Assembly: GCF_965641715.1 (NCBI RefSeq) | Contig: NZ_OZ282453.1 | Direction: 5' to 3' (one strand) | From: Escherichia coli | GTDB lineage: Bacteria > Pseudomonadota > Gammaproteobacteria > Enterobacterales > Enterobacteriaceae | Length of the DNA stretch: 64,000 nucleotides | Shown: positions 35,856 through 37,214 of the stretch, in pieces | Layout of the letters: each line of letters begins with the position of its first letter | Numbering within the stretch: the stretch's first letter is position 1 | Made by a program: the position numbers and the translations under genes | The notes under the pieces: model-generated | What the model was told of the DNA's origin: nothing | The model's input: only the letters and a program-made list of their open reading frames with translations | The model's database searches: none

Positions 35856-35865
35856 GGAGTTTTCC
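35856..35865. repeat. left target-site duplication of the IS186 insertion (GGAGTTTTCC)
   Basis: Identical 10-mer at 37205..37214 directly flanking the element. Confidence 0.8.
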
Positions 35866-37204
35866 CATAAGCGCTAACTTAAGGGTTGAACCATCTGAAG
35901 AATGCGACGCCTCGGTGCCTCGTTAAGACGATGCCTCGCGTTCTTCAATTGCGTTTTGTAGGCTGTCAGGGATACTGTCCCACGAATGGCCACCTGTAAG
36001 CTCCAGATGACCATTTTTGTTATTCTCCACAACGAGTTAGTTCTTCTTTTCGGATCCGGCACTTCTGGGGGGGAAATCCAGCGATGGCTGGATTATGTCG
36101 TCAATTAAAAATGCGGCGAGTAGATTAGCAAATATCCACGCTTTCGCGAGTTCAGGTTCCTTTGCACGCAAAGCATCCAGGTGCAGCAAACTTTTGAGCC
36201 GCTTAAAAGCCAGTTCAATTTGCCATCGCAGACGGTAACAATCAGCCACTTGCTCTGCTGAATATTCATCTTCCGGTAATGATGTTAGCAATAGCACATG
36301 GCCCGCTGCTTCCAGCGTTTCCGCCTGAACTACTCGTCCTTTTCGACGATTCTCGCTGAGCAGTCGGGTTTTACTGATTAATGCTTTTTCGGGAGGAAGT
36401 GATACGGCAATGAGACGTGCCGGAAAGGGAGCTCCGGCTTTTTTATTACCTGAATTGCCTATCATTACAGTGGTTTCACCGTTCTTACCGCAATCCAGCC
36501 CGCGCAGAAAACCCATCATGTCAAAGCGCATTCCTTCTGCAGTTAACCAGCGCAATCCTCGCCAGTGAACCCGGACGATATAATCAGCTTCTCCAAAAGC
36601 AAGTGAGCGGATACATTCGGGACGCGAACCGAATCCCCGGTCAGCAATGCGTATCTCGTCTGCCGTTTGCGCAAATCGGTCCAGCCGTTCAGCGTCTCTG
36701 CTGTCGGTTAGCTCAAAATCAGTGAACTGACAGGTATGAGGATCATATCCCATATGTAGTCGCCATTCAGCGCTGCCGCCCCCGGGCGCACTGATTGCTG
36801 TTCCATCGACAAGACGCAATCTCTTTCCGCTTGTACAACCCGTAACTGCGGCGCGTACAGCAAGTGTTTGTGCGGCAAGTATGCCAAACCAGTCGGCGGC
36901 ATTCCGCAGCCGCTTCAGGAGAGCCACGTCAGATAATGTTGCAACGTCATGGAGCTGAGCCCATGCAGTGACTTCACGTAATGACATCCCCCCGGGGCCG
37001 TAAGCCAGCCCCAGACGTAGCAGAGTTGCAGCATCACGAATTTCGCGGCGGCGGGTTAGAGCCCCGGCATTACGTGCCGAAGTATCCAGTTCTTCGGGCT
37101 TACCAATATGGGCCAGAATTGCTGACCAGTTATCGTGAGAGTAATTCATCGGCACGTTAAATCATATCAGGCGTAATACCACAACCCTTAAGTTAGCGCT
37201 TATG
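35866..37204 (-). mobile_element. IS186 (IS4 family) insertion sequence, 1339 bp, with 23-bp terminal inverted repeats
   Basis: IR CATAAGCGCTAACTTAAGGGTTG at 35866..35888 and its reverse complement at 37182..37204; internal transposase ORF; 10-bp direct repeats outside; target context GGGG-AGTTTT-CCCC. Confidence 0.9.
36037..37155 (-). CDS. insL: IS186 transposase (DDE, IS4 family)
   Basis: 372-aa ORF (MPMNYSHDNWSAILAHIG...); start may be the internal ATG at 37149 (MNYSHDNW...). Confidence 0.85.
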   Translation of the reverse strand: MPMNYSHDNWSAILAHIGKPEELDTSARNAGALTRRREIRDAATLLRLGLAYGPGGMSLREVTAWAQLHDVATLSDVALLKRLRNAADWFGILAAQTLAVRAAVTGCTSGKRLRLVDGTAISAPGGGSAEWRLHMGYDPHTCQFTDFELTDSRDAERLDRFAQTADEIRIADRGFGSRPECIRSLAFGEADYIVRVHWRGLRWLTAEGMRFDMMGFLRGLDCGKNGETTVMIGNSGNKKAGAPFPARLIAVSLPPEKALISKTRLLSENRRKGRVVQAETLEAAGHVLLLTSLPEDEYSAEQVADCYRLRWQIELAFKRLKSLLHLDALRAKEPELAKAWIFANLLAAFLIDDIIQPSLDFPPRSAGSEKKN

Positions 37205-37214
37205 GGAGTTTTCC
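37205..37214. repeat. right target-site duplication of the IS186 insertion (GGAGTTTTCC)
   Basis: Identical to 35856..35865. Confidence 0.8.

Follow-up and report, generated by a model that had tools for sequence, protein, structure and literature searches.

The locus described here belongs to a 64,000-nucleotide stretch of Escherichia coli DNA (hereafter, the window) and consists of the rtc RNA repair region and the neighboring malT gene. The regulatory gene rtcR, the sigma-54 promoter, and the rtcB-rtcA gene pair are all present in a complete arrangement that is syntenic with E. coli K-12. Within rtcA, the reading frame is interrupted by an insertion sequence, which together with both copies of its target-site duplication occupies positions 35856-37214. 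The coordinates of all relevant features are listed in Table 1.

Table 1. Features of the rtc-malT region of the window and of the IS186 copy inserted within rtcA.
Feature	Position	Strand	Remarks
rtcR, sigma-54-dependent activator with CARF domain	32201..33799	(-)	Intact, 532 aa
Sigma-54 promoter element of rtcBA	33934..33949	(+)	TGGCACGACGGTTGCA; identical to the K-12 intergenic sequence
rtcB, RNA ligase	33986..35212	(+)	Intact, 408 aa; upstream gene of rtcBA
Truncated rtcA frame	35213..35926	(+)	rtcA start at 35213; native residues 1-218 (to 35865/6), 19 IS-encoded residues, stop
Target-site duplication, left copy	35856..35865		10 bp, GGAGTTTTCC
Complete IS186	35866..37204	(-)	Strand is that of the transposase gene; 1,339 bp; 100% identity to MG1655 IS186A
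Terminal inverted repeat, transposase-distal end	35866..35888	(+)	CATAAGCGCTAACTTAAGGGTTG; 23/23 match with the other end
insL transposase	36037..37149	(-)	Intact, 370 aa + stop; antisense to rtcA, pointing to rtcB
Putative terminator-like hairpin + T-run inside the IS	36419..36438	(+)	rtcBA-sense strand; consensus scan; -16.5 kcal/mol, z = -2.2
Terminal inverted repeat, transposase-proximal end	37182..37204	(-)	Reverse complement of CATAAGCGCTAACTTAAGGGTTG
Target-site duplication, right copy	37205..37214		10 bp, GGAGTTTTCC
Orphaned rtcA 3' part	37215..37581	(+)	Codons 219-339 + stop, including the catalytic His309 codon
Hairpin in the 42-bp spacer between convergent rtcA and malT	37594..37619		-12.2 kcal/mol, z = -3.3
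malT	37624..40329	(-)	Intact, 901 aa; convergent with rtcA, no part in the event; from the ORF list, annotated malT in syntenic genomes

Results

The inserted element

The inserted element is a canonical IS186 and its presence reflects an ordinary and well-understood type of event. A nucleotide comparison found all 1,339/1,339 bases to be shared with IS186A of E. coli K-12 MG1655, and the InsL protein of the window (370 aa) is likewise identical to K-12 InsL1. The two inverted repeats agree at 23/23 positions, with the end-to-end identity ceasing exactly at base 23, and a search of the entire 64-kb window for CATAAGCGCTAACTTAAGGGTTG with a tolerance of <=3 mismatches yielded just these 2 matches (0 expected from 100 shuffles). 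InsL exceeds the threshold of the IS4 family model NCBIfam NF033592 (133.3 bits, cut-off 115) and contains a full Pfam DDE_Tnp_1 domain (PF01609, E=3.6e-26). The defining signature of the IS4 family, Y-x2-R-x3-E-x6-K, is present in its translation as well, within CYRLRWQIELAFKRLK. Thus, a sequence-only reading of this region, which had proposed a 1339-bp element with 23-bp inverted repeats and had identified it as IS186 with an IS4-family transposase, was accurate on each of these points. Given the intact transposase and ends, as well as the existence of a relative that differs by 1 SNP and lacks the insertion, this IS186 copy is predicted to be transposition-competent.

IS186 is encoded by 2,220 of the 5,426 complete E. 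coli genomes, where it occupies a median of 3 places per carrier genome, and copies with 100% identity to the one studied here are found in many E. coli genomes. PGAP names these identical copies "IS4-like element IS421 family transposase." We considered whether this label might denote a separate element and rejected the idea, as the sequence is that of K-12 IS186A and the K-12 record itself reads "IS186/IS421 family." The IS421 label is a mere naming convention.

The target site and its empty counterparts

The break in rtcA separates the second and third bases of codon 218, which agrees with the earlier placement at codon ~218. The 10-bp direct repeat that had been noted around the element is also present upon re-inspection, with GGAGTTTTCC found on both sides. 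A repeat finder extends the literal direct repeat to 12 bp (GGGAGTTTTCCC). With C as the first base of the IS and G as its last, the boundary is ambiguous in the usual way, and the two lengths do not conflict. When the IS and one repeat copy are deleted in silico, the result is an unbroken 339-codon rtcA containing the target GGGGAGTTTTCCCC, which is a perfect N6 match to GGGG(N6/N7)CCCC. Once the IS has been removed, this rtcA target is the sole site of that type within the whole window. The K-12 rtcA gene, the comparison originally recommended, carries no IS. As determined by Lee et al. in 2016, 59 new IS186 insertions recovered from mutation-accumulation lines define a highly specific 5'-GGGG(N6/N7)CCCC-3' motif; only 19 N6 and 35 N7 sites of this kind exist in K-12, one of which was independently struck 16 times (PMC5009759). 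The GGGG-N6-CCCC target suggested by the sequence-only reading fits this motif and can also be observed directly in its empty state. In the near-isogenic strain L007 (GCA_021646925.1), which differs by 1 SNP in 13.2 kb of flanking sequence, GGGGAGTTTTCCCC is uninterrupted, and the insertion in the window is therefore recent. The empty rtcA site is likewise found in L009 and in the complete genomes TB06051 and ET350. Of the 5,426 complete E. coli genomes in RefSeq, a set from which the window's own genome is absent, the freshwater isolate TB06051 is the best match to the window (99.4%). Conversely, a contig of GCA_965259455.1 shares 100% identity with positions 27986-35990 of the window and stops 125 bp within the IS, so that only the left junction is represented. 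A contig break inside the IS is typical short-read assembly behavior at a real IS copy. It is now evident that the rtcA::IS186 insertion is real, recent, and restricted to a narrow lineage.

The same organization is exhibited by the K-12 IS186A copy (insL1; NC_000913.3 15,390-16,728), which shares with that of the window its sequence, transposase, 23-bp repeats, 10-bp duplication, and GGGG-N6-CCCC type of target. The K-12 target is GGGG-ATCACT-CCCC (GGGGATCACTCCCC) and the junction geometry is as in the window, whereas the two copies differ in location and in their orientation relative to the GGGG/CCCC arms, which is opposite. The arms of the target are palindromic, and the rtcA site is likewise used in both orientations.

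Consequences for rtcA

The insertion deprives RtcA of its last 121 residues. On the 5' fragment, the RNA 3'-terminal phosphate cyclase model NCBIfam NF003247 matches profile positions 1-219 of 338 only, while the reconstructed 339-aa RtcA can be aligned over residues 1-339 with the crystal structure of the E. coli enzyme (PDB 1QMH, E=5e-212). In this alignment, His309 corresponds to residue 309 and lies inside the lost segment. H309A RtcA forms no RtcA-AMP and is catalytically inert (PMC3854526). An uninterrupted RtcA frame that includes this adenylylation nucleophile is lacking, and rtcA is a pseudogene in this strain. Lacking the His309 nucleophile as well as part of the inserted domain, the allele is predicted to be null for cyclase activity and the strain almost certainly has no RNA 3'-phosphate cyclase. 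In an exact-product look-up, the 236-aa truncated product counted from the second ATG matches one public assembly, GCA_965259455.1, and the 237-aa fusion counted from the first ATG has no match.

Consequences for rtcB, rtcR, and malT

Both remaining components of the Rtc system are unaffected at the level of their coding sequences. RtcB has the same length as its K-12 counterpart with 4 substitutions, and the identical protein is recorded as carrying Pfam PF01139. RtcR matches NCBIfam NF038308 over profile positions 1-529 of 530 (851 bits, cut-off 650). Since rtcB is located upstream of the insertion, RtcB should still be producible from its unaltered promoter, and with no operon gene beyond rtcA, no downstream polarity arises. 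However, an intact rtcB sequence may not equate to an intact Rtc response. In E. coli, the induction of rtcBA by RtcR requires rtcA in ahpC, mazF, and ybaK mutants, whereas gor and yobF mutants do not need it (PMC9650030), and activation of the rtc operon is down 4.8-fold in a Salmonella truA rtcA double mutant (PMC7790460). Based upon these studies, rtcB may be under-induced, most likely only under those stresses whose signal needs RtcA. The sequence-only reading had stated that RtcA is truncated while the RtcB ligase and RtcR regulator remain. This is correct for the sequences, but perhaps overstated for function, given the RtcA-dependent induction reported in both of these studies (PMC9650030, PMC7790460). 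It is also conceivable that some rtcB transcripts stop within the IS, as a putative hairpin and T-run lie on the rtcBA-sense strand (36419-36438), a suggestion made at the level of a consensus scan.

A further proposal, that outward transcription from the IS could affect the 3' region of malT, finds no support. The transposase gene reads away from malT, a stable hairpin occupies the spacer between the convergent genes, and a promoter/terminator consensus scan of positions 33,700-37,800 detected no promoter-like sites facing malT, its sites overall being no more numerous than those in shuffled sequence. Similarly, a search of the literature on IS186 and "outward" found no published description of an outward IS186 promoter. 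In the wild type, rtcBA transcription is already convergent on malT, and it is no less likely to be lowered by the insertion than to be raised.

Recurrent insertion at the rtcA site

Beyond what had been recognized from the window itself, insertion of IS186 at this site is recurrent. The element resides at the same rtcA position in 13/5,426 complete E. coli genomes (~0.24%), and both orientations are represented. A junction query identified 2 complete genomes having the same orientation as the window, ET5 and JNEC-KY203. As both inverted repeats are identical, the opposite orientation is invisible to a plain junction query and a chimeric query was used instead, which identified 11 complete genomes. 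We fetched 7 of these 11 and examined 9 carriers in total, and 9/9 were found to have the K-12-like allele (GGGGAGTTTTTCCC) and a duplication of 11 bp. In the carriers, which include ET5, JNEC-KY203, LR-33, HH35, 572, CRE389, ECKH-505, 2022S01-140, and 2020N08-094 among others, the IS is located between the same two codons as in the window; PGAP splits rtcA into two pseudogene fragments around the IS, whereas rtcB, rtcR, and malT are intact. The carriers differ from the window in having another rtcA allele of ~95.7% identity, the N7 target GGGGAGTTTTTCCCt with one arm mismatch, an 11-bp duplication, and, in 11/13 cases, the opposite orientation. The differences in allele, target, and duplication indicate that these events are independent of the window's allele. 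The two carriers that share its orientation, ET5 and JNEC-KY203, have rtcA genes that are ~95.7% identical to that of the window, with the target GGGGAGTTTTTCCCt and an 11-bp duplication. We also considered whether the window might have inherited its insertion jointly with these two strains. This was rejected, as the flanks are only 95.7% identical and both the target allele and duplication length differ.

When the allele, duplication length, and orientation are considered together, they require at least 3 independent insertions, and the rtcA site is thus a natural hot spot for IS186 in E. coli. This count is a minimum, as the flanks within each orientation group are too alike to separate descent or recombination from repeat hits. 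Three natural alleles of the site can be distinguished: a perfect N6 motif in the lineage of the window, an N7 motif with one arm mismatch in K-12-like strains, and a motif that has been destroyed (GGCAAGTTTTTCCC). As sequences, these three alleles read GGGGAGTTTTCCCC, GGGGAGTTTTTCCCT, and GGCAAGTTTTTCCCT. The K-12 rtcA site (3,556,198-3,556,211) is one base off the consensus (CCCT), and thus the consensus alone is not fully predictive of why this site is hit. The exact junction pattern, queried for both alleles and both orientations, matched neither the GTDB species-representative genomes (0 hits) nor the JGI metagenome contigs (0 hits), and a full-text search of the searchable literature library found no paper in which IS186 and rtcA are mentioned together.

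Discussion

The current study describes a recent IS186 insertion into codon 218 of rtcA, the region's only GGGG(N6)CCCC site, and we are highly confident that the event is explained by the target specificity of the element and not by selection. A canonical IS186 entered the sole GGGG(N6)CCCC site, located at codon 218 in the second and final gene of the rtcBA operon, which RtcR and sigma-54 control, and 10 bp of target was duplicated in the process. The loss of His309 and part of the inserted domain would create a cyclase-null allele. RtcR-dependent induction of rtcB would be weakened for those stresses that rely on RtcA for their signal. The position of the insertion presumably reflects IS186 target specificity (i.e. 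mutational bias) rather than selection. We favor the view that rtcA is decaying neutrally, or nearly so, at what is a mutational hot spot, and an adaptive switch is unlikely.

A rival to this interpretation is that the insertion is adaptive, in which case losing RtcA while keeping RtcB would have been repeatedly selected due to a rewiring of the Rtc feed-forward loop or of RNA-end chemistry. The outcome might be, for example, an altered tolerance to ribosome-targeting antibiotics or toxins, with the hot spot serving as a reversible or contingency switch. Certain features of the data are compatible with such a scenario. At least 3 independent hits have occurred at one site, which is occupied in 13/5,426 genomes in addition to the lineage of the window, but repeat hits are precisely what specificity alone predicts, as illustrated by the K-12 site struck 16 times in selection-free lines (PMC5009759). 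Moreover, the occupancy is low, at about 0.24% of genomes, and the near-isogenic strain separated by 1 SNP retains an intact rtcA. Both rtcB and rtcR are intact in the window and in 9/9 examined carriers, and RtcA is known to modulate induction in a condition-specific manner (PMC9650030). Another study ties the Rtc system to transient antibiotic resistance (PMC12606134), and Lee et al. themselves raise the question of selection acting upon retained IS186 target sites (PMC5009759). Against these considerations, the occurrence of both orientations argues against a promoter-type effect, and relatives of the strain exhibit other rtc lesions, including an rtcA annotated as frameshifted in TB06051 and a truncated rtcR beside ISVsa5 in DSM 103246; these lesions fit relaxed selection. 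On balance, we regard an adaptive origin of the insertion as highly unlikely.

A particular version of the adaptive scenario would have the codon-218 site as a retained and recurrently used switch that removes RtcA, spares RtcB and RtcR, and is favored in some niches, which we consider very unlikely. If it were true, IS186 insertion would alter which stresses induce Rtc RNA repair, and the relevant niches could include those in which toxins cleave RNA or antibiotics target the ribosome. The perfect GGGG-N6-CCCC motif is created by the rare Ser218-to-Pro allele, which would then raise the switching rate, whereas the GGCA allele would abolish switching. Even less probable, to the point of being nearly negligible, is an assembly artefact in which an IS186 copy was misplaced into an otherwise intact rtcA during repeat resolution: many E. 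coli genomes contain several IS186 copies (a median of 3 places per carrier) and misassembly classically arises at repeats, but a misjoin would not yield a precise 10-bp duplication, a perfect consensus target, and complete inverted repeats, the identical left junction is found in GCA_965259455.1, where the contig is broken inside the IS, and 13 closed genomes carry an insertion of this kind.

The explanation by target specificity has a parallel in the lon gene, where recurrent insertion of IS186 at one GGGG(N6/7)CCCC-type site reportedly results in lon loss-of-function. The lon insertions are said to strike the promoter and to confer strong selectable phenotypes, whereas the IS186 copy in the window lies within the coding sequence of an operon's final gene. 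With respect to function, the closest comparison is to the engineered rtcA mutants of E. coli and Salmonella, in which RtcA is lost and RtcB is kept, as in the window (PMC9650030, PMC7790460, PMC3854526). These mutants form the basis for both the predicted loss of cyclase activity and the predicted condition-dependent loss of rtcBA induction. They are clean deletions or point mutants of laboratory strains, whereas in the strain studied here a 218-residue fragment with 19 foreign residues may be made and 1.3 kb of IS would be part of the operon transcript.

The insertion leaves the current understanding of IS186 and the Rtc system unchanged. Its consequences are predictable from published work, and IS186 at the rtcA site is already annotated in other public genomes. 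For the strain itself, induction of the Rtc RNA-repair response may be only partial, which would be relevant to any study that uses the strain to investigate toxin-antitoxin systems, RNA damage, or how ribosome-targeting antibiotics are tolerated. As a natural illustration of IS186 target specificity, the locus is clean, and it is accompanied by a near-isogenic empty site. Furthermore, the three natural alleles of the site, together with its repeated hits in both orientations, could be used to test how motif quality sets the rate of IS186 insertion.

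Allelic variation and IS186 insertion in rtcA

The IS186 target in rtcA is polymorphic when the window is compared with K-12 and the comparison loci L004-L010. In the window's lineage, the site reads GGGGAGTTTTCCCC, with Pro at codon 218 and a perfect GGGG(N6)CCCC motif, while K-12-like alleles carry GGGGAGTTTTTCCCt, with Ser at codon 218 and an N7 motif having one mismatch. A third allele, GGCAAGTTTTTCCCt, is found in DSM 103246 and in the loci L008 and L010, and here the motif is destroyed. Among the alleles compared, IS186 insertions were found only in GGGGAGTTTTCCCC and GGGGAGTTTTTCCCt.

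At the same rtcA site, IS186 also occurs in the opposite orientation in 11 complete E. coli genomes, seven of which (L014-L020) were included in our comparison of flanks. Five isolates from Taiwan share identical flanks around the element and, judging from these sequences, probably represent one clone; 1-3 SNPs separate these flanks from those of LR-33 (Ecuador) and HH35 (Canada). The rtcA-borne IS186 copies of ET5 and CRE389 (L020) are 1-2 bases shorter and both of their transposases are annotated as frameshifted, with the missing bases of the ET5 copy falling in C-homopolymer runs. The shortening of these two copies could be either real decay or homopolymer sequencing error.

Further rtc-locus lesions can be observed in the closest complete relatives of the window. 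The rtcA gene of TB06051 is annotated as frameshifted, possibly owing to a homopolymer error in long reads, and in DSM 103246 a truncated rtcR adjoins an ISVsa5 (IS10-like) transposase.

Coordinates of features at the rtc locus and elsewhere in the window
Feature	Sequence	Position	Strand	Detail
RyhB sRNA (RF00057)	window	5346-5410	+	83.1 bits; gathering score 55
glgP-glpD stretch	window	27245-28380
IS186 target in rtcA	window	35854-35867 / 37205-37216
Hairpin	window	37594-37619		-12.2 kcal/mol; z = -3.3
rtcA-borne IS186	ET5 (L001)	5400-6736
rtcA	TB06051 (L004)	20004-21019
Truncated rtcR and ISVsa5	DSM 103246 (L006)	1-1585
Two-gene cassette	L008, L010	8309-9063		92-aa TacA1-family antitoxin (PF08681); 161-aa partner

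Features beyond rtcA

In an Rfam scan, RyhB was the sole family above threshold in the window. Within the glgP-glpD interval, the tabulated stretch has no alignment to TB06051, the nearest complete genome. This interval encodes one PstS-family gene and two hypothetical genes in TB06051; in the window's lineage, it encodes PBP_like_2 genes (PF12849; 502 and 330 aa) as well as a 44-aa ORF. The stretch is a variable islet that K-12 lacks at this position.

In some E. coli lineages (L008, L010), rtcA is separated from malT by a two-gene cassette encoding an antitoxin and its partner, and their rtcA, 342 aa long, diverges at its 3' end. The window lacks this TacA1-family cassette. There, the convergent rtcA and malT genes are separated by a 42-bp spacer containing a stable, GCCGGAUC...(loop)...GAUCCGGC-like hairpin, which probably serves as a shared or bidirectional terminator.
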